NCBI GenBank assembly: GCA_030697165.1
Contig: JAUYQQ010000023.1
Span: forward strand, 286,681-350,680
From: Acidobacteriota bacterium
GTDB lineage: Bacteria; Acidobacteriota; Vicinamibacteria; Vicinamibacterales; UBA2999
Direction: 5' to 3'
DNA: 64,000 bases
Positions 3,876-64,000 of the stretch are shown piece by piece. The position numbers and the translations under genes were made by a program. Every line of letters starts with the position of its first letter. The first letter of the stretch is position 1. A model generated the notes under the pieces. That model ran no database searches. It was not told the origin of the DNA and was given only the letters and a program-made list of their open reading frames with translations.

Positions 3876-3896
3876 CGTCTCTGCTCCTGCTGCCCT

Positions 3897-3921: not shown

Positions 3922-3925
3922 CTGC

Positions 3926-8112: not shown

Positions 8113-8118
8113 GGGGGC

Positions 8119-9525: not shown

Positions 9526-9555
9526 CAGCCTCTCTCCTCCGTTAACGAACGACTT

Positions 9556-9580
9556 ATCCGGCTAAAGCCGGATGCTACAT
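9556..9580. repeat. REP-like hairpin ATCCGGCTAAAGCCGGATGCTACAT, copy 2
   Basis: Same sequence as 3897-3921 and the same position (DUF1592-DUF1552 gap). Confidence 0.8.
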
Positions 9581-9592
9581 TGCCCATGTGGT

Positions 9593-9610
9593 GTCCGCCT
9601 TCAGGCGGAC
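9593..9610. repeat. Second small hairpin GTCCGCC-TTCA-GGCGGAC
   Basis: Perfect 7-bp stem with a TTCA loop. It has the same architecture as GTCCGGC-TTCA-GCCGGAC at 19994-20011. Confidence 0.6.
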
Positions 9611-9615
9611 CGTGC

Positions 9616-13883: not shown

Positions 13884-13907
13884 ATGCGTAACCCTGTCAC
13901 TTGCCTT

Positions 13908-14007
13908 CACCACGAAGAGCCCGAAGACTACGAAGAACGCGAAGCCAAGTTTTCCAGAAGGACTCTTCGTGTCCTTCGAGATGGCCTTCGTGTCCTTCGT
14001 GGTTGCC
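13908..14007. repeat. CACGAAG-stutter palindromic intergenic element, copy 2
   Basis: caccacgaagagcccgaagactacgaagaacgcgaag ... cttcgtgtccttcgagatggccttcgtgtccttcgtggttgcc. Same position (ankyrin-DUF1552 gap) and same flanks (ccctgtcactt..., ...cttcgtggttgcctt) as copy 1. Confidence 0.8.
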
Positions 14008-14008
14008 T

Positions 14009-15421: not shown

Positions 15422-15426
15422 GGTTT

Positions 15427-37102: not shown

Positions 37103-37179
37103 GCGCTCGTAGCTCAACTGGATAGAGCATCGGCCTTCGAAGCCGGGGGTCGCAGGTTCGAGTCCTGCCGAGCGCACCA
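37103..37179 (+). tRNA. tRNA-Arg (anticodon TCG), CCA encoded
   Basis: Hand-folded cloverleaf: GCGCTCG TA GCTC AACTGGATA GAGC A TCGGC CTTCGAA GCCGG GGGTC GCAGG TTCGAGT CCTGC CGAGCGC A CCA. Anticodon loop is CT-TCG-AA. Confidence 0.9.
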
Positions 37180-37364: not shown

Positions 37365-37410
37365 GTTTGTTCGTAAGGCAATAACGCCGACTCGATAGGA
37401 GTTGAGAGCG

Positions 37411-38211
37411 ATGACGAAGACCACCGAAGCCCCGACCTTTAGCCAGCTGTTCGCCACGATCGTTGAGCAGCCCGGCATCATTCACGAAGCCTTCAGCCGG
37501 TTCCACAACTACAGCCTCGGGAATCAGATCTTGGCGTGGTTCCAGTGCACGCAGCGCGGCATCACGCCGGGACCCATCGCGACCTATTCAGCGTGGCAGG
37601 GGATGGGCCGCCAGGTGCGCAAGGGCGAGAAGGCGCTCGTGCTGTGCCAGCCGGTCACCGTCAAGAAGAAGGCCGAAGAGCCGGAAGGCCAGGAGGCCGC
37701 CTTCACGCTGTTCACCTATCGCGCGAAGTGGTTCGCGCTGGCCCAGACGGAGGGCGCCAGCTACGAAGCGGCGCTGCCGGCGACGTGGAGCAAAACCCAA
37801 GCGCTCGCCGCGCTCGACGTTACCGAGGTCCCCTTCGCGCACACGGACGGCAACTGCCACGGCTACGCGATCGGCCGCTCGGTGGCCGTGTCCGACATCG
37901 CTCCCATGCCCTTCGCGGTGCTGGCTCACGAGCTCGCGCACGTGGTCTTGGGCCACACGTCGGAGGGCCAGTGCAGCGACACGACGGACCGGACCCCGCG
38001 CGCGCTGCGCGAAGTCGAAGCCGAGAGCGTGGCGATGCTGGTGGTGGGCAGCCTCGGTGAGTCGGGCCTCGAATACTGCCGCGGCTACGTCCAACACTGG
38101 TTGAAGGGCGGCACGATTCCGGAACGCAGCATCCAGAAGATCTTCAAGGCGGCCGACACGATCCTCCGTGCCGGCCGTCAGGAGCCCGAGCAGCTGCAGG
38201 AGGCCGCATAA
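37411..38211 (+). CDS. ArdC-like antirestriction protein (ssDNA-binding N-domain plus HExxH metalloprotease domain)
   Basis: ORF 37402..38211 (TTG). ATG 37411 is preferred by analogy with the duplicated leader. Motifs FHNYSLGNQILAWFQ, ATYSAWQGMGRQVRKGEKA and HELAHVVLGH. Confidence 0.75.
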   Translation: MTKTTEAPTFSQLFATIVEQPGIIHEAFSRFHNYSLGNQILAWFQCTQRGITPGPIATYSAWQGMGRQVRKGEKALVLCQPVTVKKKAEEPEGQEAAFTLFTYRAKWFALAQTEGASYEAALPATWSKTQALAALDVTEVPFAHTDGNCHGYAIGRSVAVSDIAPMPFAVLAHELAHVVLGHTSEGQCSDTTDRTPRALREVEAESVAMLVVGSLGESGLEYCRGYVQHWLKGGTIPERSIQKIFKAADTILRAGRQEPEQLQEAA

Positions 38212-38483: not shown

Positions 38484-38516
38484 TTGACGGGCATACAACG
38501 ACTTGTTGTATACTTG
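38484..38516 (+). promoter_or_regulatory. Promoter/operator copy B upstream of higBA
   Basis: TTGACG 38484-38489, palindrome gcatacaac-gactt-gttgtatac (38491-38513), and TATACT as a plausible -10. The downstream leader (taacgccgac.cgat...gttgagagcgATGA) is shared with copy A. Confidence 0.6.
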
Positions 38517-38561
38517 TCTTCGTTGGCACTAACGCCGACCCGATTCGAAGGGTTGAGAGCG

Positions 38562-38867
38562 ATGAGCATCAAGAGCTTCAAGACGAACACCGCCCGGGAC
38601 ATTTTCCTCGGCGATAACACCAAAGCGGCGCGCAAGATCGCCCGCACGGCATGGCCTTCGGCGAGCCATCGCCTGCAGATCCTGAACATGGCGGCGCGCC
38701 TGAGCGACGTCGCCCAAACGCCGGGGGTTCGGCTGGAACCCATCAAGCACAGCAAACCGGGCTTCTACAGCCTGCGCGTCAACAATCAATACCGGATCAC
38801 GTTCCGGTTCGAGGATGGCAATGCCTACGACGTCAACGTCGAAGACCCGCTCTGGCACCAGCCGTAA
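38562..38867 (+). CDS. higB: HigB-type toxin (RelE/ParE superfamily, plasmid maintenance system killer family)
   Basis: ATG 38562 inside ORF 38484..38867. MSIKSFKTNTARDIF, RLQILNMAARLSDV, PGVRLEPIK and YRITFRFEDGNAYDVNVEDP match the HigB consensus as I recall it. Confidence 0.85.
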   Translation: MSIKSFKTNTARDIFLGDNTKAARKIARTAWPSASHRLQILNMAARLSDVAQTPGVRLEPIKHSKPGFYSLRVNNQYRITFRFEDGNAYDVNVEDPLWHQP

Positions 38868-39228
38868 CAAGCTGGTCCCGGGAGACCTGGCGGACCAACG
38901 CCGGGCTCCCACCCACCCCGGGGTGATGTTCAAGCTGGAGTTTCGGGAACCGCAGGATCCACCGGTGTCACAACGCGAAGCGGCGCGCCGCCTCGGGATC
39001 TCCTACAACTACATGAACCTGATTGAACTCGGCGAGCGCCCGGTCTCTCCGGAGATGTGCGTGAAATTTGAAGCGCTGACCGGCGCCAGCGCTGAGATGT
39101 GGGCGGGGTTGCAGATGCGCTACGACCTCTGGCACGCGTTTCAGTCCGCCAAGAAGCCCCGACCCATCCCCGGCGATCCGTTCGCCAGCAGCACGGCGCC
39201 GAGTAAGACTCGCCGGCCGCGCCGCTGA
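38815..39228 (+). CDS. higA: HigA-type antitoxin (XRE-family HTH)
   Basis: THPGVMFKLEFREPQDPPVSQREAARRLGISYNYMNLIELGERPVSPEMCVKFEALTGASAEMWAGLQMRYDLW is the HigA pattern (HPGE...L...A..LGV....i..i..G.r.it...A..La..fg.s.e.W). The exact start is uncertain: ATG 38815 overlaps higB by 53 nt, and a non-ATG start nearer 38872 is possible. Confidence 0.75.
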   Translation: MAMPTTSTSKTRSGTSRNKLVPGDLADQRRAPTHPGVMFKLEFREPQDPPVSQREAARRLGISYNYMNLIELGERPVSPEMCVKFEALTGASAEMWAGLQMRYDLWHAFQSAKKPRPIPGDPFASSTAPSKTRRPRR

Positions 39229-51356: not shown

Positions 51357-51552
51357 GGATGTCTCCTGCGCCAATCTGGGGGTGAACCGAGAAGCCAATG
51401 CCGAGACGCCGGCATTGCGCTTCAATCTCTTCGAGCTCAGCGGCCTTATCTCTCAGCCGTTCGCGGGTGGTGCGGATGGTGGCCTTGCACTGCGCCACCT
51501 CCGCACTCACTCGCCGGTGCTGATCGATCAGGGCACTAGGTGTCGCTGACAC
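51301..51552 (-). CDS. Questionable small ORF (83 aa)
   Basis: GTG-initiated. The first roughly 50 aa look helical (ALIDQHRRVSAEVAQCKATIRTTRERLRDKAAELEEIEAQ), but it overlaps both neighbours (17 nt and 56 nt). Confidence 0.25.
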   Translation of the reverse strand: MSATPSALIDQHRRVSAEVAQCKATIRTTRERLRDKAAELEEIEAQCRRLGIGFSVHPQIGAGDIHGRSERPPHPRPQHTLQR

Positions 51553-52141
51553 TGTCCTGGGCGACGATGCGCCCGAAGCGTTCGTCGTCCGAGGTGGCGT
51601 TGGGATCCTCGAGGGCCTCGAACTGCAGCGCGAGCGCCGCGGCCTGGTCCTTCTTCTTCACCGGCTCCGGATTGCCGGTCTGGATGCAGACGGGGACTTC
51701 GTACTGCATGGCGAAGTCATCGCCGTAGGGGGACGGGCCGCGCGCGATGAGCGAGTATTGCGTGACGCTGCGGCCGCGGGTCATGCCGATCTTGCGCGGC
51801 GCGCCCGACTCGTTGGTGACGACGTTGCCGTTGAGGGCGATCTTCCACGCCTCGAGGGTCATGTCCGCCAGCTCGAAGCTGATCATCAGCTCCTCGTCGG
51901 TCCGCCAGGCCTTGCGGGCGCCGGTGGAACCGGCCGACTTGAACTTGGCGATCGTCTGCGGGTTGCTGACCTTGACACCCTCTTCGGTGTAGTTCCGGTC
52001 ACCGGACACGCCGACCTTCGTCCAGTCCCCGTCCGGTTCGACGTCGATCGGCGGGAACGCCGTGCCGACCGGCGCCAAGTAGATCGTGAAGGGCGCGGCG
52101 ATGATTTCGTACGGAGTGGCATTCGACAGATCGGGTGGCAT
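51536..52141 (-). CDS. Major tail (tube) protein
   Basis: 201 aa immediately upstream of the chaperone pair. The assignment rests on position and size. Confidence 0.65.
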   Translation of the reverse strand: MPPDLSNATPYEIIAAPFTIYLAPVGTAFPPIDVEPDGDWTKVGVSGDRNYTEEGVKVSNPQTIAKFKSAGSTGARKAWRTDEELMISFELADMTLEAWKIALNGNVVTNESGAPRKIGMTRGRSVTQYSLIARGPSPYGDDFAMQYEVPVCIQTGNPEPVKKKDQAAALALQFEALEDPNATSDDERFGRIVAQDSVSDT

Positions 52142-53207: not shown

Positions 53208-53540
53208 TTACGCCTCCACCACCAACACGCGCGTTTGGTCGAACTCGATGCCGATCGTGCTGTCTACCTTCCACAGCTTCGCGGCTTCCCCGGCCTGCTC
53301 GGGCGCGCTGACCAGCGTGCCTTTCGGCACCGTCGGCACCTTGTCCCGTCGCAGGACCATCAGCTTCATGTGCTCGCTGCGGCTCAGGTCGAACCCGACA
53401 GGGTTCCCGTCGGTCGAGGCGTTCACCCAGGTCACCGTGGTCTCAATCGGCGTGGTGTCCGCGGGTGTCGGCCGTGTCACCACAGCCGGCACCCCGAACG
53501 CCCGCATGATTGCCGCCATAGAGACCCGGGCATCCGCCAT
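53208..53540 (-). CDS. Head-tail joining protein (positional, FI/FII slot)
   Basis: 110 aa, directly after the major capsid gene. Confidence 0.55.
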   Translation of the reverse strand: MADARVSMAAIMRAFGVPAVVTRPTPADTTPIETTVTWVNASTDGNPVGFDLSRSEHMKLMVLRRDKVPTVPKGTLVSAPEQAGEAAKLWKVDSTIGIEFDQTRVLVVEA

Positions 53541-53549
53541 CAGCGTCGA

Positions 53550-54548
53550 CTAGCTGCCCTGAACGACCTTGATGACCGCGCGCGGGCGCGTGCACAGGTT
53601 GAGCGGGTTCGACTGCGCGTGGACCTTGGCCCATTCCTGCATCTGCGGGTCGATGGCGACGCGCGAGTAGTAGGGCAGGCCGACGGTGTTGACGGTGTCG
53701 AGGAACTTCGCCGGCGCGTAGCGCGTGATGAAGATCCCCGTGCCTTCGGGCACCACGAAGCACTCGGCGTCGGCGAAGAACTTCGTGCCGTTGACGCTGC
53801 CGCGGTAGTTCTCGAAGGTGATGCCGCCGTATTCGAACCCCTTGCGGAGGTCCTTGCGGAGCGTCTGGCTCTCCTGATACTTCAGGCTTTCCTTGACGTC
53901 CGGGTGCTCGACGAGCTGGTCGAAGAACGTGTCACCGCAGAACGCGCGGTAGCCGGTGACCGCCTCGGCGCCGAGCTCGTTCTCGCTCAGGCGCTGGATC
54001 TCGACGCAGCGGCGCCGGATCTCTTCGCCGTCCGAGTTCAGGTCGATCTCGGCCGTCTGCTGCGAAACGCCGAACTCGGTGAACAGGTTGAACAGCGTCG
54101 AGTCGTCGGCGTCGAGCACCAGGCCCTTGATGGCGCCCACGCGGTGCCGCTCGAGCGTCACGTCGAGGTCGCCCTTGAGCTTCGCCTGGCGCTGGGCCAC
54201 GACGGCCTGCACGCCTTCCGTGGCGTTCTCGCTGCCGAAGGCCCGCACACCCTGCACGTGCTGCGGCAGGATGGTCGATTCTTTCTTCAGGTGCGGCACG
54301 ACGAAGCTCCGCACCTTGCGCTTGTCGCCGCCAACCGTCGCCGCCGGGGCTCCGGGCTGGCTGGTCTGCACCAGGGCGATCGAGCCGTCGAGCTCCTCGA
54401 TGACGGCCACATCGGTGGTAATGCCCTCCGACTGGAACAGGCCGAGGCTGCCGATGCGACCGGGCTTGTGCGGCATCTTGTTGATAGCCGCGGTCAGCGA
54501 CATCAGCGTGAACGCGTCGTTGTTGAAGATGTTGATCAGGCTGCTCAT
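53550..54548 (-). CDS. Major capsid protein, lambda gpE family
   Basis: 332 aa. MSSLINIFNNDAFTLMSLTAAINKMPHKPGRIGSLGLFQSEGITTDVAVIEE is the characteristic gpE-family N-terminus. Confidence 0.9.
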   Translation of the reverse strand: MSSLINIFNNDAFTLMSLTAAINKMPHKPGRIGSLGLFQSEGITTDVAVIEELDGSIALVQTSQPGAPAATVGGDKRKVRSFVVPHLKKESTILPQHVQGVRAFGSENATEGVQAVVAQRQAKLKGDLDVTLERHRVGAIKGLVLDADDSTLFNLFTEFGVSQQTAEIDLNSDGEEIRRRCVEIQRLSENELGAEAVTGYRAFCGDTFFDQLVEHPDVKESLKYQESQTLRKDLRKGFEYGGITFENYRGSVNGTKFFADAECFVVPEGTGIFITRYAPAKFLDTVNTVGLPYYSRVAIDPQMQEWAKVHAQSNPLNLCTRPRAVIKVVQGS

Positions 54549-54593
54549 GGTGTCCTCGTTGTCCTCCTGCCGGTTGGGTTTCGCGCGCCCCGA

Positions 54594-54968
54594 CTAGGAG
54601 CGTGCCTTCACGCCCAGCGCGGCCAGATCGGCCAGGCCTGCAGCGTCATCCACGCCCTCGTCCCACGAGAGCTCGGAGGTGCGCACTTCAGCGCCCCAGT
54701 TGATGATCACGCCGTCGTAGTCGACGGCCGCATCGGTGTCGTTCACGATCTTGTCGAACAGCACGCCGGCGGCCGTTTCACGGCCATCGGACGAAGCATC
54801 GTCGAACGCCACGTACTTGCCGGTGGCGCTGACCTGGCCGAGCACCTTGCCCGGGTTGAAGGTCGTGTTGGCGGGCACCGTGACGGTCACCGCGTCGCGG
54901 CTGATCCGACCCGGTGACTCGGTGTGGAGGAATTCCCCTGAATACTTGCCTTCGGTCAGAACAGACAT
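54594..54968 (-). CDS. Head decoration protein (gpD-like)
   Basis: 124 aa, between the protease and the capsid gene. GKVLGQVSATGKYVAFD...AAGVLFDKIV is typical of head decoration proteins. Confidence 0.8.
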   Translation of the reverse strand: MSVLTEGKYSGEFLHTESPGRISRDAVTVTVPANTTFNPGKVLGQVSATGKYVAFDDASSDGRETAAGVLFDKIVNDTDAAVDYDGVIINWGAEVRTSELSWDEGVDDAAGLADLAALGVKARS

Positions 54969-54977
54969 TGCGAACTC

Positions 54978-56063
54978 CTATTGAGAAACGGTGGCCTTGT
55001 TGTGCTGCGCGTAAATGGCGGCCGCGTCAATACGGGCCGTCGCCTTCGTGCCGGTGTCCGGGTCGAGCGTGGGGTCGATGTTGGCTTCCGCCTTCATTGC
55101 GACGAGCGTGGTCAGGTGCGCCTTGACCTCGTCGATGGTCATGTTGGTCTTGACCAACTGGTCGGCCACCCGCTCGCACTTCGCATTCGCGCAGAGGGCC
55201 CGCACCGACGTTTCGCGCGCCGCCGCGGCCGCCCGCACGGCTTTCGCCTCGTTGACACGCGTGGTGACCTGTGCGAGTGGCGCCTTCTCGGTGATCAGCG
55301 CCTGCGCCACGTCGATGCCGAGACCGGCGTCGGCGCACAGCTGCAGCACGTCGGAAGCCGCGGCGGCCTGAGGCGGTTCAGCCGCCTTTGGCTGTTCCGG
55401 TGCGAGGAACGCCTTCACCTGATCCCGGTATTGATCCGGAACGGTGAGCGTGGCCATCACCCGGCTATCGAGGCACGCCGCGGCTTTCAATCCCTCGATC
55501 TTCTCGGTGGCGAAGCCCTTGGCGATCGCTTCATCAGCGTTCAGCCAGGTTTCGGCCGCCATGAGGGCCTGGATGTCTTCCGTCGACAGCGTCGAATGCC
55601 ACTGGTAGGTGGTCACGATCTGGTCGCGGAACTTGTCGAAGTCGTCTGCGGACTGGCGCAAGGCCTTCGCGTTGCCGCAGACGCAACCCCACGGGTCATG
55701 CACGAACATCAGGGCGTTGTCGCCCATGCGAATGGTGTTGCCGGCCATCGCAATAACGGACGCGATGCTGGCCGCCAACCCCTCGACGATCACGTTCACG
55801 GTGCGGCCCTTGGTCATGCGCTGGTCGCGCAGACCGTTGGCAATCGCGATGCCCTCGAAGACGCTCCCGCCCTCGGAGTGCAACTTGACGTTGAGCGACT
55901 TCACCGTCGCCGGCAGGGCACTCAGGATGTCGAGGAGCTTCTTCGCCGAGACGGCGTCGTCGTCCCACCAGGACTTGCCGATGTAGCCGTAAATCAGCAC
56001 GTCGGCCTCTTCGGGCTTTTCCGCCTGATTGACGACGTTGAACCATTTGCGCGGCTCGCTCAT
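54978..56063 (-). CDS. ClpP-type (S14) head maturation protease fused to a scaffold-like C-terminal region
   Basis: ADVLIYGYIG...HSEGGSVFEGIAIANGL...VEGLAASIASVIAMAGN...MFVHDPW (Ser and His contexts of the ClpP family). The C-terminal roughly 150 aa are Ala-rich and helical. Confidence 0.85.
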   Translation of the reverse strand: MSEPRKWFNVVNQAEKPEEADVLIYGYIGKSWWDDDAVSAKKLLDILSALPATVKSLNVKLHSEGGSVFEGIAIANGLRDQRMTKGRTVNVIVEGLAASIASVIAMAGNTIRMGDNALMFVHDPWGCVCGNAKALRQSADDFDKFRDQIVTTYQWHSTLSTEDIQALMAAETWLNADEAIAKGFATEKIEGLKAAACLDSRVMATLTVPDQYRDQVKAFLAPEQPKAAEPPQAAAASDVLQLCADAGLGIDVAQALITEKAPLAQVTTRVNEAKAVRAAAAARETSVRALCANAKCERVADQLVKTNMTIDEVKAHLTTLVAMKAEANIDPTLDPDTGTKATARIDAAAIYAQHNKATVSQ

Positions 56064-57613
56064 TGCTGTGCTCCCTGTGGCTGGGTGTTCGTGTCTTCGA
56101 CGTCCTTGGCTTCAGGCGTGCTGCCCTTGAGCGACACGCGGCCATCAGAGTCGTGCTTCAGGCCCATCTGGTCGGCCCGCGCGTTGTCGTCTTTCTGCTG
56201 CTGGTCGATCTGCTCGACGTCCTCACCGTGCTCACTGACGACGGACGCGCGCGAGGTGAAGCCGTTGCGAATAGCTTTTTGATCGGCTTCGACGTCCTGC
56301 ACGGGATGCAGGTAGGCCCAGCCCTGCGGCATCCACTTGACCTTCGTGAACGGCGTCGGGTCAGCGAGATACGAATTCGGGAACGGCAGCTTGCCGGCCA
56401 GGAACGCTGCGTTCAGCCACGCCAGCCACACGCGACGGCACAACTGAAAGCCAATGATCTGGTGCTGCCAGGCCTGAATGCGGCGCCGGAACTCGGCCAG
56501 CAGCACGCGCATGATGCGGTCGTTTAGGTTGCGCAGGTCGCCGGTCACCACTTCGTATGGCACGCCGACCGCCACGCACGCCGCCATCAGCTGCTGGCGC
56601 ATGAACTCGGGATACATCTCGCCGACGGCGGGAGGCTCGGAGAACTTCACATCCTGCCCGGGGTCGAGTTCCTGGAACAACCCGGGCTCCAGCGGCACCA
56701 GCGGGCGCTTTGCGGTGTTCTGCGAGGCGCTGAGGCCAGTCAGCGGGTGCGGCGAGTCCGCGCCGTCCGTGGCGTCCTTGTTCGTCACAAACGCCACGAA
56801 CATGTTGGCCAGTTGTTGGCGCAGCAGCGTGGCGTCGTCGAACTTGTTGGCGTCGAACAGACGCGTCAGCGCCGGCGTGAGGACCGGCAGCCCGCGCAAC
56901 TGCCCAGGACGTAGCGGGTCGAACAGGTGAATGACCTCATGCTCCGGGACCCGACGTAGCGAGCCGCGATCGAAGTCGTCCAGGTCACCGGGCCGCGACG
57001 GGTGGAACCAGTAGGCGACGCGCCGACCAATGCGATCGAACTCGATGCCGGCCTTGATGCGATTGCCATTCGCCGTATAGGTGGTGTGCTGGTGCGGGCA
57101 CATCTCCGGCTCGAGGATCTGCAGCTGCAGCGGCACCGTCAGGCCGTCCTCGAGGAACCGCGGGCGCAGGCGCACGAAAGCCTCACCGCCCTCAAACCAC
57201 CCGCGCGTGGCCTGGGTCTGCTGGCCGTAGTAGTCGAGCACGCCATCGGCGTCGCTCTCGTCAGTCCACTGCTCGAACAGCTCCTGAATCTGGGCCCGCA
57301 GGCTGGTATCCGCCGCGCGCGACAGCGGCTTGATCCCGGTGCCGACGACGTTCGACACCAACTTGTCGATGGGGCTCTTGGCGAAGCCGTCGTTGCGGGT
57401 CGCCTGGCGCGAGCGGTTGCGCAGCGTCGAGAGGTTCCACAAGACCGAGGCGTTCGGACTGACGTCAGGCGCGACCCAGCCCAGCGCCCGGCGGCCCGTG
57501 CCGGCGGCCTCGAACGCCGTGTTCTTGACGTTGGGGACTGACGACATACGCGTCATGGCCCCAACGCGCACCGGCGCATCCAGTTCGGGCGAGGCACTGA
57601 AGGAGGTGGCCAT
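56060..57613 (-). CDS. Portal protein, lambda family
   Basis: 517 aa. ATGA overlaps on both sides. LRNRSRQATRNDGFAKSPIDKLVSNVVGTGIKP and the later GxxRxxP.. blocks resemble lambda gpB-family portals. Confidence 0.85.
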   Translation of the reverse strand: MATSFSASPELDAPVRVGAMTRMSSVPNVKNTAFEAAGTGRRALGWVAPDVSPNASVLWNLSTLRNRSRQATRNDGFAKSPIDKLVSNVVGTGIKPLSRAADTSLRAQIQELFEQWTDESDADGVLDYYGQQTQATRGWFEGGEAFVRLRPRFLEDGLTVPLQLQILEPEMCPHQHTTYTANGNRIKAGIEFDRIGRRVAYWFHPSRPGDLDDFDRGSLRRVPEHEVIHLFDPLRPGQLRGLPVLTPALTRLFDANKFDDATLLRQQLANMFVAFVTNKDATDGADSPHPLTGLSASQNTAKRPLVPLEPGLFQELDPGQDVKFSEPPAVGEMYPEFMRQQLMAACVAVGVPYEVVTGDLRNLNDRIMRVLLAEFRRRIQAWQHQIIGFQLCRRVWLAWLNAAFLAGKLPFPNSYLADPTPFTKVKWMPQGWAYLHPVQDVEADQKAIRNGFTSRASVVSEHGEDVEQIDQQQKDDNARADQMGLKHDSDGRVSLKGSTPEAKDVEDTNTQPQGAQQ

Positions 57614-57834
57614 CAGTGGAACCCACTCCCGGAGGCGTAGCCGACGGACTGCTTCGAACGACCACCGAGCAGCTCGCGCAGCAGGCTCTTGAAGTAGCCG
57701 ATGCGCGACTGCAGCTCGTTCGAAGAGTTGTAGGTGATGCCACGATCAGCAAACTGCACGCCCTTCTCGACGAGCAGAAGCCCGTCCTCAAGGGTCTGAA
57801 TGCGTTCGCGGAGCTGCGCCTCGGTGTAGGCCAT
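57613..57834 (-). CDS. gpW-like head-tail joining protein
   Basis: ATG 57834 inside ORF 57613..58164. 73 aa: MAYTEAQLRERIQTLEDGLLLVEKGVQFADRGITYNSSNELQSRIGYFKSLLRELLGG. Size, position before the portal and the pattern all match lambda gpW. Confidence 0.75.
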   Translation of the reverse strand: MAYTEAQLRERIQTLEDGLLLVEKGVQFADRGITYNSSNELQSRIGYFKSLLRELLGGRSKQSVGYASGSGFH

Positions 57835-57893
57835 TCGGGTGTTCGCTACCGAGGATCGGGCCGTTCCGAGGAATCTGTATTTCTTATGTACTT

Positions 57894-58136
57894 TTATTCG
57901 GTCCGGTGAGGGACCGTCTTCGGGCGGGCACCCGCGATCAACACGCCGCGCAGCACCCGCTGGAGAGGCACGCGCAACCGGTGGCCGCGGTGGCAGTAGG
58001 TATCGAAGACGTCCTGCGGCAGGCGCAGTGTCACGAGCACCATTGGGTTTGCAGCCTTCGGGCGGCCGCGCTTTCCCCGGGTCAGCGGATGCGGCTGCTG
58101 GTGCGCGCCGGGATCCTCGCGCCGGCGGGCCATCAC
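57894..58136 (-). CDS. Small basic protein (possible DNA-binding protein)
   Basis: 80 aa. RGKRGRPKAANPMVLVTLRLPQDVFDTY. ATGA overlap with the upstream glycosyltransferase gene. It is the last gene of the GT/MT operon. Confidence 0.5.
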   Translation of the reverse strand: MMARRREDPGAHQQPHPLTRGKRGRPKAANPMVLVTLRLPQDVFDTYCHRGHRLRVPLQRVLRGVLIAGARPKTVPHRTE

Positions 58137-58858
58137 AGCGACACCGCCAACGCTTGCCGCTCAAGCGAACGCCAGAGGGTCACCAGCGGCCGCACGCCAG
58201 GCTTGGTGGCCGGCTGCAGGTTGAATACGGCCAGCCGCAGCGCGCTCTTCACGTGCACGATCCGTGTGCGCGCCGGCGCGAAGTCGCTCCAGGCGCTGTC
58301 TTCGCAGTTCCACTCAAGGCACGGCAGCGTGGCTAGCCGCAGGTCGGCCGGCGGCGACGCCAGGACGCAGCCGAGGGCCGCCTGGTTGAGCCCACCGAAC
58401 CGGGCGCGCCACTTCTGATGCAAGGGCCGGTCGGTCAGCATCCGCCGGTTGACATCCGCCCACTGACGCAGGAATGCCTTCGAGCGGTCGTTCACGCGCA
58501 GGAACACCACGCCGGCATTCAACGGCAGCTTGTAGGGCTTCGGGCGCACCGTGTAGGCCACGTCGAACGCCTCCTGCCACACGTCGTCCAGCGGCCGCAG
58601 GATGACGGTGTCGGCGTCGATCAGCAGCACCTCGGCGCCGTCGGGGAGTTGCTGCACCGACTCACTCCAGAAGTCCAGCTTGTGGGTGTTCGCGCGATAC
58701 GATTCCTCGACCGCGCCCGACCGCTTCGGCCGATCGAGGCGGATGATCCGCCGTTCCCAGTCGGGACACTGCCGAGCGGCGGTGGCGGCCAGAACCGGCG
58801 CGAGCCGATCGAACTGGCCGCCCGCGTCGCCGAAGTAGCACGACACCAGCAGCCTCAC
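58133..58858 (-). CDS. Nucleotide-diphospho-sugar transferase (GT-A fold, DxD)
   Basis: ORF 58133..58909. GTG 58858 gives a GTGA overlap. AEVLLIDADTVILRPLDDVW and LNAGVVFLRVNDRSKAFLRQW. Confidence 0.7.
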   Translation of the reverse strand: MRLLVSCYFGDAGGQFDRLAPVLAATAARQCPDWERRIIRLDRPKRSGAVEESYRANTHKLDFWSESVQQLPDGAEVLLIDADTVILRPLDDVWQEAFDVAYTVRPKPYKLPLNAGVVFLRVNDRSKAFLRQWADVNRRMLTDRPLHQKWRARFGGLNQAALGCVLASPPADLRLATLPCLEWNCEDSAWSDFAPARTRIVHVKSALRLAVFNLQPATKPGVRPLVTLWRSLERQALAVSL

Positions 58859-59568
58859 CGGTAGAACCTGCCAATCCACGGGAACTCGCGTTGCACGTCT
58901 CGCTGCCACGGGTCGCGGCGACCGTGGAACATCACGATTCGCGCATCAACCGGCAGGTGTTGCGATCGGCGCAGGTCGTTCCTCAGGCTGTAGATGCCAT
59001 CCGCTCGCGTCCACTTGGCCTCGGCCGGGCCAAGGCAATGCGAGATCCATCCCTGATCGGAGCCGTAGCACCCAGCCAGCCGCGCCGCGGCGGGCGAGGT
59101 CGCCGGATCGAACCGCTCCCACACCTGCGGCCTGGCGCCAGCCGTGAGCAGCACCATCGAGCCGTTGTAGGCCGTGGTCGGGTGCGTGCCGCCCCAGAAC
59201 ACCGCGTCTTCCGGCCGGTCCCAGACTGGCGTCACGTCGCCCGTGATCACGCAGTCCAGGTCGATCGACACAAACCGTGGGCCAAAGAACTGCCCGGCGT
59301 CAGGCGCGAAGGCACGCAGGCGCCGGTAGCAGCTCGGGCTGCGGGCCCCATGCGGGCTGGCCAGGTCGGCGTGGTCGGGCCACAGCGGCACCACCTCGAC
59401 ATCCGCATCAAGGCCGGTCGCATCGTCCGTAACGCAGATGAAGCGGTGCGGCCGCTGGTAGTTTCTCGCGACCATCCGCTTGAGCGTGTTGACGGTCGAG
59501 GGCGGATAGACAGACCGGTAGCCAGGCGCGGGTTTCCAGCGCCAGCACACGACTGACAGGTCAGTCAC
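58855..59568 (-). CDS. GT-A-like glycosyltransferase (paralogue of 60899..61588)
   Basis: 237 aa. VVCWRWKP..GYRSVY....VNTLKRMVARN...PHRFICVTDD and RFVSIDLDCVITGDVTPVWD (DxD). Confidence 0.65.
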   Translation of the reverse strand: MTDLSVVCWRWKPAPGYRSVYPPSTVNTLKRMVARNYQRPHRFICVTDDATGLDADVEVVPLWPDHADLASPHGARSPSCYRRLRAFAPDAGQFFGPRFVSIDLDCVITGDVTPVWDRPEDAVFWGGTHPTTAYNGSMVLLTAGARPQVWERFDPATSPAAARLAGCYGSDQGWISHCLGPAEAKWTRADGIYSLRNDLRRSQHLPVDARIVMFHGRRDPWQRDVQREFPWIGRFYR

Positions 59569-60284
59569 AGCAACCGCTCATAGGGGAACGTGACGCGCAG
59601 CGGCCGCCACTTTGGATCCTTGTTCCGCTGCTCGCGGATCCTCGGAACGTTGGTCTTGTCCTGCTCTTCCTTCCGGCCATACGTTGTCGTCGACGCGTCG
59701 GCGAGCACCTCTCGGGGATAGCGGACCAGCACGTCCTCCCGCATCACGACGACGCGGGCCGTGGCATGAACCCTGTCGCGGAACTCCGCATCGGTGCCGT
59801 AGAAGCCGGAGAACCGTTCGTCGTAGCCGCCGATGTCGTCAAACATCGACCGCGTGAGGAACCAGCTATTCGGGTGCGGCTTGTAGGGCGTCATCGCTGG
59901 CGCATCGACGCGCGCGAACCGGTGCACGCTGCGCGGGTCCAGCCGCTCGGTCATCAGCGCGCACAGCGTGGCCGCCGGAACGACGTGATCGATGTCGGTC
60001 AGCAGCACCCACTGCGTGTCGGCCACGGCGACGCCGAGGTTTCGACAGAACAGCCAATTCCATCGGACGTCCACTTTGGTCCGGTAGAGTCGGAACGACG
60101 CCACGCCGGTCTCTTCAACGGCCGGCAGCGCGGGCGCCGTGGGCGAGCAGTCATCGACCACCACCACGTGGAGGCGCCGCTTGATGTCGTCTGGATACTC
60201 GCGCCACACGCGCTGTTGCTCGCGCAGCATTCCGGGGTTCTCGTAGAAGGGCAGCACCAACGTGATCGCGCGCATCGATCCCAC
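59565..60284 (-). CDS. Family 2 glycosyltransferase
   Basis: 239 aa. ITLVLPFYENPGMLREQ...LHVVVVDDCSP...WVLLTDIDHVV. Confidence 0.8.
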   Translation of the reverse strand: MGSMRAITLVLPFYENPGMLREQQRVWREYPDDIKRRLHVVVVDDCSPTAPALPAVEETGVASFRLYRTKVDVRWNWLFCRNLGVAVADTQWVLLTDIDHVVPAATLCALMTERLDPRSVHRFARVDAPAMTPYKPHPNSWFLTRSMFDDIGGYDERFSGFYGTDAEFRDRVHATARVVVMREDVLVRYPREVLADASTTTYGRKEEQDKTNVPRIREQRNKDPKWRPLRVTFPYERLL

Positions 60285-60902
60285 CTACACCGCCCCTTTG
60301 TGAACAAACACGTAGTCGCTGCCAGGCGCGGACCGCACCTGCCGATAGCCCAGGTCCTGCAGCAGCCGGCGCACGTCGTCATCGGTCTTGCCGAAATGCT
60401 TGGTGAACTCGCGGAGTTCGACTTGGATCACCGGGTGCGAGCGGCGAATCGTCTCCACTGCGCCCTGCAGAGCGTGGCACTCGTATCCCTCGATGTCGAG
60501 CTGCAGGAAGTCGACGTCGAAGAGATCCATGTTGTCGACGGTGGTCATGTAGGCCGACTGGCCTTCGTCGGTCGTGCTGATGCGATGGGACCCGAGACTC
60601 TTGTGCTTCACGCGACAGGGGCCATGCGCAGCCCCAAGGGCCGCGGGGCTCACCACCACCGACGCGGGGACGTTCCGTTGTAGGCATTCCCGCGAGATGG
60701 CATCCGGCTCGAACGTGTAGACACGGGCGAACGTCTCAGCCAGGCGCCGCGGCCAGAGGCCGATGTTGCCGCCGGCTTGGACCGCCGTCCGGCGCGTCGT
60801 GCAGAACTTCAAGCCGACGTCGAGCGAACCGAGGTGATCGAGCGAGTGCCGCCACTTCTCGGCCACGTCATCCGGCCACCACACGCCTTGAATCTGGATC
60901 AC
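60285..60902 (-). CDS. FkbM-family methyltransferase
   Basis: ORF 60285..60938. GTG 60902 gives a GTGA overlap. AVQAGGNIGLWPRRLAE.FARVYTFEPD and FLQLDIEGYECHALQGA. Confidence 0.8.
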   Translation of the reverse strand: MIQIQGVWWPDDVAEKWRHSLDHLGSLDVGLKFCTTRRTAVQAGGNIGLWPRRLAETFARVYTFEPDAISRECLQRNVPASVVVSPAALGAAHGPCRVKHKSLGSHRISTTDEGQSAYMTTVDNMDLFDVDFLQLDIEGYECHALQGAVETIRRSHPVIQVELREFTKHFGKTDDDVRRLLQDLGYRQVRSAPGSDYVFVHKGAV

Positions 60903-61588
60903 GGCTGCGCCTGCCCGCCCCACGCGGCGTCGAACCACGGCCAGCGCAGCACCGCTTCATGGTTCTTTGGTTTCTTGACCAGCACCACCTTCGCCTCCGC
61001 CGGCCATGGCGGCTGCACCCGCGAGATCCGTGGGAACCACTCGACCGGCAGGCCTGCGGCATCGTGGGCCTGTTCGCCGATCCAGTCCTGATCGGTGCTG
61101 AGACTGGCCGCGCTGGCCGGCGTCCAAGTGTCGAAGAGGCGTCCCTGCGTCCCGGCGTCCCACACCATCACCGAGCCGTTGAACCGACGCACGAGACGGC
61201 GCCCATACCGGTCGGTATCGATGCGAGGGCGCTCGGCCGCGAGTTCGTCAGCGGCCAGCGCGAAGGGCGCCGGGTAGTCGACGATGGGGTCGAGCGGCGC
61301 CACGATGAGCGTATCCAGGTCGAGATACAAGACCCTGCCGCCCCAGGCGCGGTCGTGCTCAAACAGCCTGAGCTTGGTCCAGAGCGCGAAGCATTCCGGC
61401 AGCCGAGCGACCTCCACCGCTTCGACACCGGCCGGCATGGCGTGCGGCTGGTCGGTCAGACAGACGAACCGAAATGGCCGGGCGAGGTGTCGGCGCACCA
61501 TCGCCAGCAGCCGGCGGACATACTCCGGCGTGTAGGGATACTCGCCCTTCACCAACACGCAGGCGACGGTCAGAGGAATGTCGATCAT
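60899..61588 (-). CDS. GT-A-like glycosyltransferase (paralogue of 58855..59568)
   Basis: ATG 61588 inside ORF 60899..61852. VACVLVKGEYPYTPEYVRRLLAMVRRHLARPFRFVCLTDQ and RVLYLDLDTLIVAPLDPIVD. Confidence 0.65.
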   Translation of the reverse strand: MIDIPLTVACVLVKGEYPYTPEYVRRLLAMVRRHLARPFRFVCLTDQPHAMPAGVEAVEVARLPECFALWTKLRLFEHDRAWGGRVLYLDLDTLIVAPLDPIVDYPAPFALAADELAAERPRIDTDRYGRRLVRRFNGSVMVWDAGTQGRLFDTWTPASAASLSTDQDWIGEQAHDAAGLPVEWFPRISRVQPPWPAEAKVVLVKKPKNHEAVLRWPWFDAAWGGQAQP

Positions 61589-61827
61589 CGCCGCTTCGCC
61601 TTTCGGCTGCGATTGATCAGCACGTAGCGAGCGAATCGGGTGTTGCCGCAGCGCCGAACGCGTCCCTTTGTCCTCAGGCGGTTCAACGCCTCGCGCGCCG
61701 CAGGCGGCTCCATGCGGGCATAGGCCGCAATCGCAGGCACCTGCCGATGGCCGGCAGCGATGGCCTCGACGACTAGAAAGTCCGCTCCACCAACGGGGGC
61801 GCGACCCGATCGTCGCACCGGCGTCAT
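61585..61827 (-). CDS. Small winged-helix-like protein
   Basis: ATG 61827 (ATGA overlap). 80 aa: FLVVEAIAAGHRQVPAIAAYARMEPPAAREALNRLRTKGRVRR, with a basic tail. Confidence 0.5.
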   Translation of the reverse strand: MTPVRRSGRAPVGGADFLVVEAIAAGHRQVPAIAAYARMEPPAAREALNRLRTKGRVRRCGNTRFARYVLINRSRKAKRR

Positions 61828-62372
61828 GGCAGCAGCACCGCAACCCATTCACGCGCCGGCTTCCCTGGCCGAATGGCGACGTCAGGGATCACCGTGAACC
61901 CGCGCGCCTGAGTTCGCGCGTGCCACCAGCCGCCGGGCTCGACGATCAGGTGCGCGTTGCGACCGTCGGCGAGGGTCTTACTGGCCAGTCTCGTCGCGAC
62001 CACCACGAAGACGGCCTTGCGCGCCAGTGACCGCATATGGTCCAGGACGGTATCCAGTCGATCCGGTTCGATGTGCTCGAGGACGTCCGTCGAGACCACC
62101 AGGTCAGCGAACGACGGCAGCGCATTCTTTCCAGGGATCGCCGGGTCATATTCGCGGCAGACCAGCGCCGGATGCTTCGCGCGGATCGCGGTCGCCAGCG
62201 TCCCTTGGCCGCAACCGTAGTCCAGGACGGACATCGCGTCGTATTGCGCGGCCAGCGCTGCGACGACATCGACCCACTTCGAACCCTTGCCGCCATAACC
62301 CCGCGGCGTGGCGTGGAGCGCGCGCTGTGTCTCGAGGTAGGCCGGTGAGATCAGGTCTTGGGCGCGCGTCAT
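61824..62372 (-). CDS. Class I SAM-dependent methyltransferase
   Basis: ATG 62372 inside ORF 61824..62531. VLDYGCGQGTLA (motif I) and LVVSTDVLEHIEPDRL. Confidence 0.8.
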   Translation of the reverse strand: MTRAQDLISPAYLETQRALHATPRGYGGKGSKWVDVVAALAAQYDAMSVLDYGCGQGTLATAIRAKHPALVCREYDPAIPGKNALPSFADLVVSTDVLEHIEPDRLDTVLDHMRSLARKAVFVVVATRLASKTLADGRNAHLIVEPGGWWHARTQARGFTVIPDVAIRPGKPAREWVAVLLP

Positions 62373-63145
62373 CGCTGCACGTAGGTGAAGTTGCGACGCG
62401 CAGCGCCGGTGAATCCGGCACTCCGGTAGTCGTCGAGGGAATAGCCGGCCGCGAGGGCCTCGTCCAGTAGCTGGTCGAACAACGCCTGCAGCTCTGGCCG
62501 AGGGTGCGGCAGGATGGCGCCGGCATACCAATGCGAGCGGCCTTCGCGTTGCAGCCGCGGGATCGCGTGCTTCAAGTGAAGCTGGTGCTCGATCCTGGTG
62601 TAGTGAATCGCCTTGACGCGCGGGTCGCCGAGCTCGTAGCCGCGCAGGTCACCGCAGTCCCAGTTGCCGTCAAAGGGCGCCAACACTTCAGGGTGCGCCC
62701 GGAAGTAGTTCAGCACCGTGCCGTGCGCATCCGACAGCCGGCGCAAGGCGTCGAGCGGCGGCACGTGGCGCCTGGCACGCTCGCAATCGAACAGAATGCA
62801 AGACGTGGTCAGCTTGCCCGTAGCGCTGCGCACCAGCGCAACATCCGGGATGTCCTGCGCCCACAACTCGGCGAGATCGGCCACGAACAGAAAGTCGACG
62901 TCGGTGTAGATCGCCCGGCCCTTGAACTCGCAGACACCCGGGATCGACCAGCGGAAGTGCGTGAACGGCGTGCGCCCGGTGCCGCAGGCCCAGCCGCTCC
63001 ACGGGCCATGCGACGACTGCCGCATCCACGTGATGTCGAGGGGCAGGCTGCAATGCTTGCGCGCCGAGTATTCGAGAACCATCTCGGCCTCGAGGTCCTC
63101 GGAGTTGGCGCTGGTGCCGACGAAGAGACGAATCGGATCGCTCAT
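62369..63145 (-). CDS. GT8-like glycosyltransferase
   Basis: ATG 63145 inside ORF 62369..63271. IRLFVGTS...LEYSARKH, RAIYTDVDFLFVADLAELW (DxD), NWDCG. Confidence 0.65.
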   Translation of the reverse strand: MSDPIRLFVGTSANSEDLEAEMVLEYSARKHCSLPLDITWMRQSSHGPWSGWACGTGRTPFTHFRWSIPGVCEFKGRAIYTDVDFLFVADLAELWAQDIPDVALVRSATGKLTTSCILFDCERARRHVPPLDALRRLSDAHGTVLNYFRAHPEVLAPFDGNWDCGDLRGYELGDPRVKAIHYTRIEHQLHLKHAIPRLQREGRSHWYAGAILPHPRPELQALFDQLLDEALAAGYSLDDYRSAGFTGAARRNFTYVQR

Positions 63146-63160
63146 AGGCTTGGCTTCGAA

Positions 63161-63289
63161 TGAGGTGCGGGTGGATTCGAACCACAGCCCGGAGCGTCGA
63201 GGGGTGTGCCCCTCTCCGAGCCCTGCACACAAGACCGGCATTCCAGAAGCGGCCTTGGTTGCACCGCCCATCCGGTTTCACTACACCTC
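63161..63289 (-). ncRNA. Non-canonical tRNA-like element (129 nt)
   Basis: Minus strand: 7-bp acceptor-like closing helix GAGGTGT/GCACCTC; adjacent T-arm GTGG-TTCGAAT-CCAC (GGTTCGAATCC consensus); 4-bp stem with a GG-containing loop (ACCG-gatggg-CGGT); 8-bp stem with a 12-nt loop; long hairpin with a GAGGGG-caca-CCCCTC tip. I could not fold it into a standard cloverleaf. Confidence 0.4.
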
Positions 63290-63914
63290 ATACGAACTCC
63301 TCGAGCGGCCGGCGCTCGAAACACGTGACGCGCGAGATGGGCGAGCAGTTGACAATGCGGACGCCCTTGGCCGCGGCATCGGCCCCCATCGCCGGCAGCA
63401 CGGCCATGTGGCGCTGAAAGTGGTCTTCGGGCGGAAACTGCAGCGGGTGCTTGCAGAAGTGCCCGCCACGCATGTCGTAGCCGACCAGGACGATCGTGTT
63501 GGCGCCGAAGTGGTAGGCCAGGTTGATGGCCGACGTGCCGGTGTCCAGGCCGGTGACGTGGTCGGTCAGGTCGCTCAGCGTGCCGTGCGCCTTCGACCGC
63601 GTCACCCGCTTGAAGACCGGATCCAACCCTTTGCAGTAGCGGCCGCGCACGATCGCGTGGCAGCCCGGGGCGTCTCGCTTGGTCCATCGCGGCAAGAGCC
63701 CGGCCGCGATCTCCTCGGTCCATTCACCGGACATGAAGAACACGTCGGCGTCTGGCCTGAGCACCACGCCGTGCTTCACGGCGATCACCGGCCCATTGAA
63801 TCGCCGGATCAGGTCCACCTGCGGACCCGCGCTCTCGCCAGTGCACACGACGAGACACGTGGCGCCTGGCCATTGCTTCGGCACATGCCATGGCGTCGGC
63901 GGCGTCCAGGTCAT
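63288..63914 (-). CDS. DUF115 / Maf-like (MptE-like) putative glycosyl- or nonulosonate-transferase
   Basis: ATG 63914 inside ORF 63288..63938 (ATGA overlap). ATCLVVCTGES...IAVKHG...FFMSGEW...GLDTGTSAINLAYHFGANTIVLVGYDM. Confidence 0.55.
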   Translation of the reverse strand: MTWTPPTPWHVPKQWPGATCLVVCTGESAGPQVDLIRRFNGPVIAVKHGVVLRPDADVFFMSGEWTEEIAAGLLPRWTKRDAPGCHAIVRGRYCKGLDPVFKRVTRSKAHGTLSDLTDHVTGLDTGTSAINLAYHFGANTIVLVGYDMRGGHFCKHPLQFPPEDHFQRHMAVLPAMGADAAAKGVRIVNCSPISRVTCFERRPLEEFV

Positions 63915-64000
63915 CCCTTGTCCTTGTCGGTGACCCACATCGGTTCACCGCGGCGCCGCTTGCGGAGGAACATGCCAATGTGGCCGAGGTCGATGGCGTG
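63911..64000 (-). CDS. 3' end of a further upstream gene of the same operon (partial)
   Basis: Hand translation: ...HAIDLGHIGMFLRKRRRGEPMWVTDKDKG, stop TGA 63911-63913. Too short to assign. Confidence 0.4.
   Translation of the reverse strand, partial: HAIDLGHIGMFLRKRRRGEPMWVTDKDKG

Follow-up and report, generated by a model that had tools for sequence, protein, structure and literature searches.

Why should a phage keep a string of glycosyltransferase and methyltransferase genes in the middle of its head operon? The question is raised by one end of a stretch of 64,000 nucleotides (nt), hereafter called the window, from an acidobacterial genome assembly (GCA_030697165.1, contig JAUYQQ010000023.1, positions 286,681 to 350,680 of the forward strand). 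Ten well-supported genes lie on its minus strand between position 57894 and the window end; we refer to them as the cassette and number them G1 to G10 in the order of transcription. Our analysis places them inside a lambda-type prophage, and the best explanation for their presence appears to be late, cytoplasmic glycosylation of virion proteins by a phage accessory module, a reading to which we assign a probability of about one half. The products comprise seven glycosyltransferase-like proteins, two methyltransferases and one small basic protein. The genes, together with one doubtful open reading frame (ORF) and the spacer that follows them, are:

63911-64000, minus strand: G1, 3′ part of the gene for a predicted GT-D (DUF1792) glycosyltransferase, cut by the window end
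63288-63914, minus strand: G2, DUF115/MptE-like protein of 208 amino acids (aa) with a sialyltransferase-like predicted fold
62369-63241, minus strand: G3, probable GT-A glycosyltransferase, weakly GT8-like, 290 aa (Pfam GT8, E 0.006)
61824-62372, minus strand: G4, class I S-adenosylmethionine (SAM)-dependent methyltransferase, 182 aa (Pfam Methyltransf_23, E 1.4e-10)
61585-61848, minus strand: doubtful ORF of 87 aa that fills the spacer between G4 and G5, with an ATGA overlap at both ends
60899-61588, minus strand: G5, DxD GT-A glycosyltransferase, 229 aa, paralogue of G8
60285-60902, minus strand: G6, FkbM-family methyltransferase, 205 aa (Pfam Methyltransf_21, E 7e-14)
59565-60275, minus strand: G7, GT2-family glycosyltransferase, 236 aa (Pfam Glyco_tranf_2_2, E 6.8e-7, above cutoff)
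58855-59568, minus strand: G8, the hallmark gene, member of a predicted GT8-like retaining GT-A family, 237 aa (Foldseek and profile search)
58133-58846, minus strand: G9, probable nucleotide-diphospho-sugar transferase, 237 aa (Pfam Nucleotid_trans, E 2.9e-4)
57894-58133, minus strand: G10, small basic protein, 79 aa
57835-57893: spacer of 59 nt with a G+C content (GC) of 51% overall

The ten genes have a coding-like third-position GC (GC3) of 0.78-0.86, and the same ten were called by an independent gene caller on the public contig Logan SRR13727523_4035 (locus L001), which is 100% identical to window positions 53288-64000 (10.7 kb) and reaches 9.9 kb past the window end. Both results support the string of at least ten glycosyltransferase and methyltransferase genes that an earlier note on this DNA, the original prediction, had proposed. 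The same note described all of these genes as chained by 4-nt overlaps. Its positions were right, and eight such overlaps exist (ATGA at 63911, 62369, 61824 and 61585; GTGA at 60899, 59565, 58855 and 58133), but those at 59565 and 58133 had been read as ATGA, and some junctions carry spacers. By the called starts G2 and G3 are separated by 46 nt, G6 and G7 by 9 nt and G8 and G9 by 8 nt, and the G4-G5 spacer measures 235 nt unless the doubtful ORF is real. Overlaps of 4 nt are the commonest type of junction in phage late operons, and those of the cassette are a sign of tight packing that is not unusual.

The full G1 gene (L001 9330-10004, 224 aa) matches Pfam GT-D, GalT1 in the PDB (4pfx, E 1e-22) and the NCBIfam model of the accessory-Sec glycosyltransferase SP_1767 (E 1.6e-27). 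Its RYGDGE aligns to RFGDGE of GalT1, in which we take DGE to be the DxE metal-binding motif of GT-D enzymes; family match (PF08759) and motif together point to membership of the GT-D (DUF1792) family. G2 matched PF01973 with an E value of 0.001 (19.3 bits, cutoff 34.6), a domain also found in some of its 443 homologues, and Foldseek matched its AlphaFold2 model (pLDDT 95.4) to an MptE-type HPPK (8sd5, E 9e-5) and further to CstII (1ro7, E 1e-3, TM 0.53) and ST8SiaIII. Typical Maf proteins have several domains and about 600 aa. G2 is a single-domain protein that resembles the DUF115 superfamily, with PF01973 below threshold, and is not a Maf protein; the earlier DUF115-like call, weak at the level of Pfam, was later backed by the predicted fold, its Maf part was not. 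G5 has no Pfam or NCBIfam match but is 27% identical to G8 (E 2e-13), and homologues with 50-61% identity occur in many cassettes. G6 also matches TIGR01444 above cutoff (E 7.5e-15). G3 and G9 are probable glycosyltransferases, to judge from weak Pfam matches and DxD motifs. G3 contains a readable DVD motif and has homologues of 56-58% identity at the same cassette position in loci L007 and L017; a PDB sequence search and a profile comparison to G8 gave nothing significant for it. G9 contains a DAD motif and scores 21.3 bits against Nucleotid_trans (cutoff 22), and its PDB and profile searches, including the one against G8, returned only weak and no significant matches. G10 might be a ribbon-helix-helix DNA binder, with matches to Pfam BrnA_antitoxin (E 0.0037, below cutoff) and to a PHROG antitoxin family (E 1.7e-4).

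The product calls of the original prediction were thus right for the FkbM and class I methyltransferases, the GT2 enzyme and the paralogous DxD pair, and weakly supported for the GT8-like and Nucleotid_trans proteins. The small winged-helix protein that it placed at 61585-61848 found no support: the MarR_2 match (E 0.008) lies below cutoff and no PHROG was matched. This ORF has a GC3 of 0.69 and an atypical GC by codon position, was not called on the public contig and has no homologue in related cassettes. None of the cassette proteins has a transmembrane-like segment (highest 19-residue hydropathy 1.52). The cassette is further devoid of genes for a flippase, a polymerase, an initiating phosphoglycosyl transferase and sugar-nucleotide synthesis, and the lack of the last means that nucleotide sugars of the host would be required.

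Downstream of the cassette and on the same strand, the head genes follow in lambda-like order, and the element ends at a tRNA gene:

57613-57834, minus strand: gpW-like head-tail joining protein, 73 aa, immediately upstream of the Phage_portal_2 gene
56060-57613, minus strand: portal protein (Pfam Phage_portal_2)
54978-56063, minus strand: ClpP-type protease (Pfam CLP_protease)
54594-54968, minus strand: decoration protein (Pfam HDPD)
53550-54548, minus strand: major capsid protein (Pfam Phage_cap_E)
51536-52141, minus strand: probable tail tube protein, 201 aa (position; Phage_TTP_17, E 0.007; PHROG 'Ig domain', 6.7e-5)
37103-37179, plus strand: tRNA-Arg(TCG) (ARAGORN), the boundary of host and prophage

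The Pfam families agree with the earlier reading of this module as gpW, portal, protease, decoration and capsid genes. The gpW-like gene is named by position and sequence pattern only: it shares a pattern including VQFAD with ORFs of about 70 aa found between the genes for the large terminase subunit (TerL) and the portal in relatives; it has no Pfam match, and BLASTP gave no alignment with a lambda gpW sequence. The original prediction also held that the cassette sits where the terminase is expected and advised reading on beyond position 64000. On L001 the terminase genes are indeed present, about 1 kb past the window end, and the cassette does not replace them but is inserted between TerL and the gpW-like gene. 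Upstream of G1 come, in this order, a 126-nt low-GC spacer, a helix-turn-helix (HTH)-like ORF of 76 aa, TerL (GpA_ATPase plus GpA_nuclease, 653 aa) and the small terminase subunit TerS (PHROG 57), and farther upstream a Mom-like DNA-modification gene, an N6/N4 DNA methyltransferase and a helicase. The insertion is thus a block of 7,049 nt that includes the HTH-like ORF and ends with G10. Apart from this 7-kb block, the lambda-type head order (Nu1/A-W-B-C-D-E) is present, with W placed as described above. The tube-like gene follows gpZ-like and terminator-like genes and precedes those for the chaperone, the tape measure and other tail proteins; beyond these lie cargo genes and the tRNA-Arg. To the left of this tRNA gene we found ordinary chromosomal genes and to the right phage cargo and tail genes, and integration probably took place at tRNA-Arg(TCG). 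None of the structural genes is truncated. The element is a lambda-type, apparently complete prophage of at least 43 kb in an uncultured Vicinamibacterales acidobacterium. The head proteins (53550-57613) and the tail tube protein are candidate acceptors for a glycan.

The borders of the insertion are of some interest for its regulation. A 59-nt gap poor in GC does precede the gpW-like gene, as had been noted earlier; the first 30 nt after the stop have 33% GC compared with 66% nearby. Neither a terminator-like hairpin nor a sigma-70-type promoter was found in it, and promoter-like and terminator-like sites in general were not above shuffled controls (terminator-like sites: 13 versus 8.0 +/- 3.1, almost all on the opposite strand), in scans with an E. 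coli-type promoter consensus that may not fit Acidobacteriota. At the other border, past the end of the window, G1 is preceded by the 126-nt spacer that parts it from the HTH-like ORF (L001 9204-9329); this spacer has 53% GC and contains the tandem repeat GAGCAAACAGAGCAAAC. A promoter/operator is conceivable here, as is a scar left by the insertion at the island's TerL-side edge.

Is the cassette an oddity of this prophage? Megablast with the nucleotide sequence of 53.5-64 kb matched none of 50,697 phage records. A search of IMG/VR with the portal protein yielded 14 loci that hold both TerL and portal genes. In 13 of these the two genes are only about 190-500 nt apart and the cassette is absent; the W-like ORF of about 70 aa is found in all but two of the 13. 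The remaining locus (L071) carries a smaller island with G8-like, GT2 and GT-D genes at the junction of TerL and gpW, and a smaller glycosyltransferase island is located at the same junction in a prophage of a Thermodesulfobacteriota metagenome-assembled genome (MAG; locus L036). Homologues of G8 were found on 28 IMG/VR contigs, seven of which have at least four cassette genes in the order of the window, with G8 always last and followed by connector, tail-tube and tape-measure genes. In 25 further loci from genomes of Alpha-, Beta- and Gammaproteobacteria and of MAGs labelled Phycisphaerae, Thermodesulfobacteriota and others, G8 lies in prophage structural modules, where it follows either TerL or the capsid gene or is placed between the protease and portal genes. 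A prophage of Sphingobium jiangsuense has a solitary G8 between a PF09950-type capsid gene, which it follows directly, and a DUF4054 connector gene. G2 homologues also occur in jumbo phages of Caulobacter and Brevundimonas.

A homologous cluster belongs to the 'Tetraselmis viridis virus' isolates S20 (NC_020840) and SI1 (HQ632858), which encode homologues of G1, G2, G4, G6, G7 and G8 with 34-52% identity (48% between G4 and S20 gene 45, 50% between G7 and S20 gene 44). In S20 the cluster (TVGG_00041-00049) has nearly the gene order of the window and lies between an HK97-type capsid gene and a head-closure gene; neither integrase nor repressor is annotated in this genome. The recorded host of both isolates is a green alga. 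They are tailed bacteriophages, since they encode TerS/TerL, portal, HK97-type capsid, tape measure, endolysin, RecT and DnaB, and their host is presumably a bacterium of the algal culture.

For 46 loci we scanned the nearest one or two ORFs to either side of the cluster that contains G8. Downstream, the commonest recognised functions were head closure, head-tail adaptor, portal, tail terminator and Neck1; upstream, capsid and decoration proteins were recognised along with additional methyltransferases and some sugar enzymes. Neither an integrase nor a polysaccharide-export family was among the recognised flanking ORFs. The cassette belongs to the phage, and its homologues travel with structural modules in dozens of viral contigs and prophages, which answers a check that the original prediction had proposed. 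It is a widespread accessory module and not unique to this prophage.

Some loci of this survey stand apart. Cultured enterobacterial phages have minimal versions: in the Citrobacter phage phiNP (L003 11433-13270) a DUF115-like and a G8-like gene are found together with a third ORF between the lysis genes and terS, while P1 and P7 each have a distant G8 homologue. Several loci contain multiple copies of the G8 family, some of them in tandem (L024 3371-4845; L054 7471-11551; L036 9998-10711 and 18008-18907), and in L036 one copy follows TerL and the other the capsid gene, which suggests repeated duplication within the family. In Neopusillimonas aromaticivorans (L055; NZ_CP128233, 2870580-2891240) the genes for TerL, the capsid protein and the G8 homologue are broken up, each into two to three ORFs, and the locus looks like a decaying copy of a cassette-bearing prophage.

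G8 itself has no Pfam or NCBIfam match, and none of its 120 listed homologues carries a Pfam domain. Its AlphaFold2 model (pLDDT 93.5) was closest to LgtC (1g9r, E 6e-10, TM 0.63) and then to glycogenin in Foldseek, and a profile search of the PDB gave Skp1 alpha-galactosyltransferase (2.6e-4) and glycogenin (3e-4), with identities to solved GT8 enzymes of 12-15%. A DLD motif is invariant in alignments of the family, which counts 3346 representatives of 50%-identity clusters at E<=1e-3 and has P1 PmgQ and P7 HdmD, genes of 'putative morphogenetic function', as distant relatives. With a predicted GT-A fold and a DxD motif but no match to the PF01501 model, G8 is probably best seen as the member of a new, uncharacterised GT8-like family. 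G8-like domains are fused to MptE-like domains in uncultured phages and also to class I methyltransferases, and these fusions tie parts of the cassette into one pathway. Fusion proteins (P0497, 835 aa; BFVD A0A6J5PVH5 and A0A6J7XC21) join a G8-like domain to a PhyH dioxygenase plus cupin, and to MptE-like domains; the fusion to a PhyH hydroxylase recalls the hydroxylation followed by glycosylation of the Skp1 pathway. A further small ORF accompanies the solitary G8 of some prophages:

about 9600-10005 in L038, L041, L042, L044, L046 and L047: small ORF beside the solitary G8, absent from the window

This ORF (about 60-95 aa, motif NPxHHSxRxTxCExLRxI...KRMxAR) overlaps the start of G8 in these six alphaproteobacterial prophages and could be a partner or acceptor of G8 in this lineage. 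As a general acceptor an ORF of about 90 aa was rejected, given its restriction to the six prophages and its absence from the window.

How could such a module act on virions? We infer late expression from position: the cassette would be transcribed together with the late morphogenesis genes. Its soluble enzymes would use nucleotide sugars of the host and SAM to build a methylated oligosaccharide, sugar by sugar, on one or more virion proteins in the cytoplasm, before or during assembly, and the particle would leave the cell with a glycan coat. Initiation is most likely due to the G8-type enzyme, since many phages have G8 on its own. Elongation or branching of the chain might fall to the GT-D, GT2, DUF115-like and other GT-A enzymes, and capping of sugar hydroxyls to the two methyltransferases. 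The coat could serve to shield the particle from recognition by the host or in the environment, to stabilise it, or to mediate adhesion.

Several lines of evidence argue for virion proteins as the target. Cassettes are embedded in the morphogenesis operons of unrelated head types; the enzymes are soluble, and their characterised relatives are cytoplasmic, several of them acting on proteins (GalT1, which belongs to the O-glycan pathway of the Fap1 adhesin, glycogenin and the Skp1 transferase); and virion glycosylation has a precedent in mycobacteriophages. The hosts of carrier phages belong to Acidobacteriota, Alpha-, Beta- and Gammaproteobacteria and Thermodesulfobacteriota. Since their envelopes differ, and since S20 is without annotated integrase and repressor, a target carried by the phage is to be preferred over a host-specific surface glycan.

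Other observations weigh against virion proteins as acceptors. The capsid genes beside cassettes belong to three or more unrelated families (lambda E-type, HK97-type and PF09950); the cassettes are thus not accompanied by a conserved acceptor protein, and no structural protein family was common to all carriers. A comparison of capsid C-termini between three island-positive and six island-negative lambda-like relatives gave no clean Ser/Thr-tail signature. Since LgtC, a lipooligosaccharide enzyme, is among the fold relatives of G8, a protein acceptor cannot be read from the fold. The mycobacteriophage enzymes of proven function showed no sequence homology to those of the cassette, and the low-GC spacers of 126 nt and 59 nt at the edges of the insertion could hold independent promoters.

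Much of this could also be read as modification of an envelope glycan of the host (lipopolysaccharide, capsule, exopolysaccharide or surface glycoprotein), that is, lysogenic or late-stage conversion, by which superinfection would be excluded or progeny kept from sticking to debris. Phage glycosyltransferases are classically tied to serotype conversion and are routinely annotated so in the literature, the closest solved fold of G8 is the lipooligosaccharide galactosyltransferase LgtC, some related cassettes contain sugar-nucleotide enzymes and GDPD domains typical of polysaccharide loci, and the edge spacers could hold promoters active in the lysogen. Conversion nevertheless appears somewhat unlikely to us, as the products are all soluble and the cassette offers no membrane protein, acyltransferase or Gtr-type component besides the missing flippase and polymerase. 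Its place is in the head operon and not beside att or int, the tRNA-Arg boundary being over 20 kb away, and it recurs at 50-65% identity and in the same order in phages whose hosts belong to different phyla with differing surface glycans. Its presence in S20, with no annotated integrase, and the G2 homologues of the jumbo Caulobacter and Brevundimonas phages also count against conversion. A different product altogether, such as a glycosylated small molecule, a host protein glycosylated for takeover or anti-defence, or no selected product at all if the genes are selfish cargo, is unlikely. Most members of these enzyme families are uncharacterised, the best NCBIfam match of G7 is MftF, a glycosyltransferase of a peptide cofactor, and a fusion to PhyH and cupin domains is found in one G8 homologue, all of which would leave room for such a product; yet genes for host takeover are normally early and not placed within the head operon, PADLOC gave no defence-system match for the ten cassette proteins, and the order conserved across phyla together with the strict association with structural genes argues for a selected, virion-linked role.

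The original prediction had also named phage DNA as a possible target, in which case a sugar chain on hypermodified bases, added before packaging, would protect against restriction or CRISPR. The cassette does lie immediately after the terminase gene, and since every phage offers DNA as an acceptor, the movement of the module between unrelated head modules would be accounted for. Phage GT-A/GT-B enzymes are described to add mono- to trisaccharides to 5-hydroxymethylcytosine (5hmC), in clusters that are sometimes near structural or terminase genes (bioRxiv 10.1101/2023.12.21.572611), and the present phage has a Mom-like gene and an N6/N4 methyltransferase elsewhere. However, known sugar pathways of this kind need a maker of hydroxymethyl-pyrimidines (5mYOX/TET or ThyS-like) and are usually clustered with it. 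No such gene was seen in window positions 37.2-64 kb and the 9.9 kb of L001, a scan outside of which at least 6.8 kb of the prophage lie, nor among the ten S20 proteins scanned or in the S20 annotation, where MT-A70 is the sole DNA methyltransferase. With neither a 5hmC nor a 5-hydroxymethyluracil pathway in sight, with seven transferases and two methyltransferases exceeding any described DNA glycan, and with most carriers having the cassette between capsid and connector genes rather than with replication genes, DNA is quite improbable as the target. The last alternative, put forward by the original prediction itself, was a polysaccharide island of the host abutting a truncated, decaying prophage. 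It was suggested by the window alone, in which no terminase precedes the gpW-like gene, and it is refuted by the extension on L001 (10.7 kb of full identity), where TerS/TerL and then replication and DNA-modification genes follow directly beyond the window; the structural genes are moreover full length, and homologous cassettes within viral contigs have structural genes on both sides.

Virion glycosylation being the favoured reading, we tentatively suggest, at somewhat less than even odds, that the cassette represents a portable, self-contained virion-glycosylation module in which enzymes of the G8/PmgQ-like family start a chain on structural proteins in tailed phages from hosts of at least five phyla. 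If so, glycan-coated virions would be common among environmental phages of diderm bacteria and not a peculiarity of mycobacteriophages. The cassette described here is among the largest versions seen in this study, with its seven transferases and two methyltransferases.

The prophage and its host contain further genes that deserve mention. The Mom-like gene (PHROG 1384, E 1e-33) is encoded directly after the N6/N4 DNA methyltransferase (L001 1783-3128, about 7-8 kb past the window end), and it is likely that the phage DNA is modified through a pathway of the phage that is independent of the sugar cassette. At the other end, inside the prophage and close to the tRNA, we found an ArdC-N/M78-peptidase protein (37402-38211), a HigB-like toxin (38484-38867) and an ORF that is its probable partner (38815-39228), a region that looks like prophage cargo at the att-proximal end. 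On the host side, the best named relatives of a TctA transporter are 78-90% identical and come from MAGs of Vicinamibacterales and other Acidobacteriota. Large paralogous ORFs occur in the host region 2472-17940 as three sets in tandem (843/468, 832/470 and 837 aa); a scan of one of these ORFs (3926-6457) revealed the 'planctomycete' PSD domains DUF1592, DUF1588, DUF1587, DUF1585 and DUF1595 and a cytochrome c motif. A 571-aa protein with ankyrin repeats is located at 635-2350.

In the full-text literature that we searched, protein-level glycosylation of virions was found for mycobacteriophages as the only bacteriophages and none was described for phages of Gram-negative or acidobacterial hosts, and the view of the original prediction that such a pathway is undescribed for phages of this host group seems reasonable. 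If the cassette serves the same end, virion glycosylation would have evolved independently and be able to move horizontally, and it would extend to phages of Gram-negative bacteria from soil and water, among them the hardly studied acidobacterial phages. This would bear on the survival and sticking of particles in soil and water and on evasion of recognition by hosts or grazers, and also on the annotation of phage glycosyltransferases as 'auxiliary metabolic genes', which are now routinely assigned to lipopolysaccharide or DNA modification. The G8 family is in any case a sizeable, uncharacterised enzyme family with a clear genomic signature, and culturable or deposited carriers (S20/SI1, phiNP, P1 with PmgQ) allow a direct test of the idea.

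Among known systems, the S20/SI1 cluster is the closest true homologue of the cassette. It is unstudied and mostly annotated as 'hypothetical', lacks G3, G5, G9 and G10, and belongs to a head module unrelated to that of the acidobacterial prophage. At the level of single enzymes, G1 appears by sequence and DxE motif to be a GT-D member like GalT1 of the Streptococcus pathway for the serine-rich adhesin Fap1, and G8 is predicted to share the GT8-type retaining GT-A fold and the DxD motif with glycogenin, Skp1 alpha-galactosyltransferase and LgtC. Phages also encode the glycosyltransferases of the serotype-converting gtrABC/oac loci and the T-even and other 5hmC DNA glycosyltransferases. From the former the cassette differs in having no membrane Gtr components and in not lying at int/att, from the latter in having no visible hydroxymethyl-base pathway in the scanned part of the prophage. 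A more distant analogue of the proposed function is the capsid glycosylation of the chlorovirus PBCV-1, a giant virus of eukaryotes with N-linked glycans, in which soluble GT-A enzymes and methyltransferases (A064R and others) build a methylated oligosaccharide stepwise on the major capsid protein in the cytoplasm. The closest functional analogue is the virion glycosylation of mycobacteriophages (Che8, Corndog, cluster O). According to Freeman et al. (2023, Cell Host Microbe), as cited in PMC12619734 and PMC11600133, glycosyltransferase and O-methyltransferase genes of these phages glycosylate capsid and tail tube proteins. Recognition by antibodies is altered in this way, and the glycans reportedly sit at the C-termini of the subunits. 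Tandem glycosyltransferases with an O-methyltransferase are common to both systems, and the proposed outcome is the same. The mycobacteriophage sets have about three transferases and one methyltransferase, compared with seven and two in the cassette, which unlike them lies inside a lambda-type head operon and in a diderm acidobacterial host. A tblastn search with G1, G2, G7 and G8 of the 50,697 phage records returned no Mycobacterium phage at E<=1e-3. The cassette might therefore be viewed as a larger, non-homologous and horizontally mobile counterpart of the mycobacteriophage sets in a lambda-type prophage of Acidobacteriota, with a predicted function in the glycosylation of its virions.

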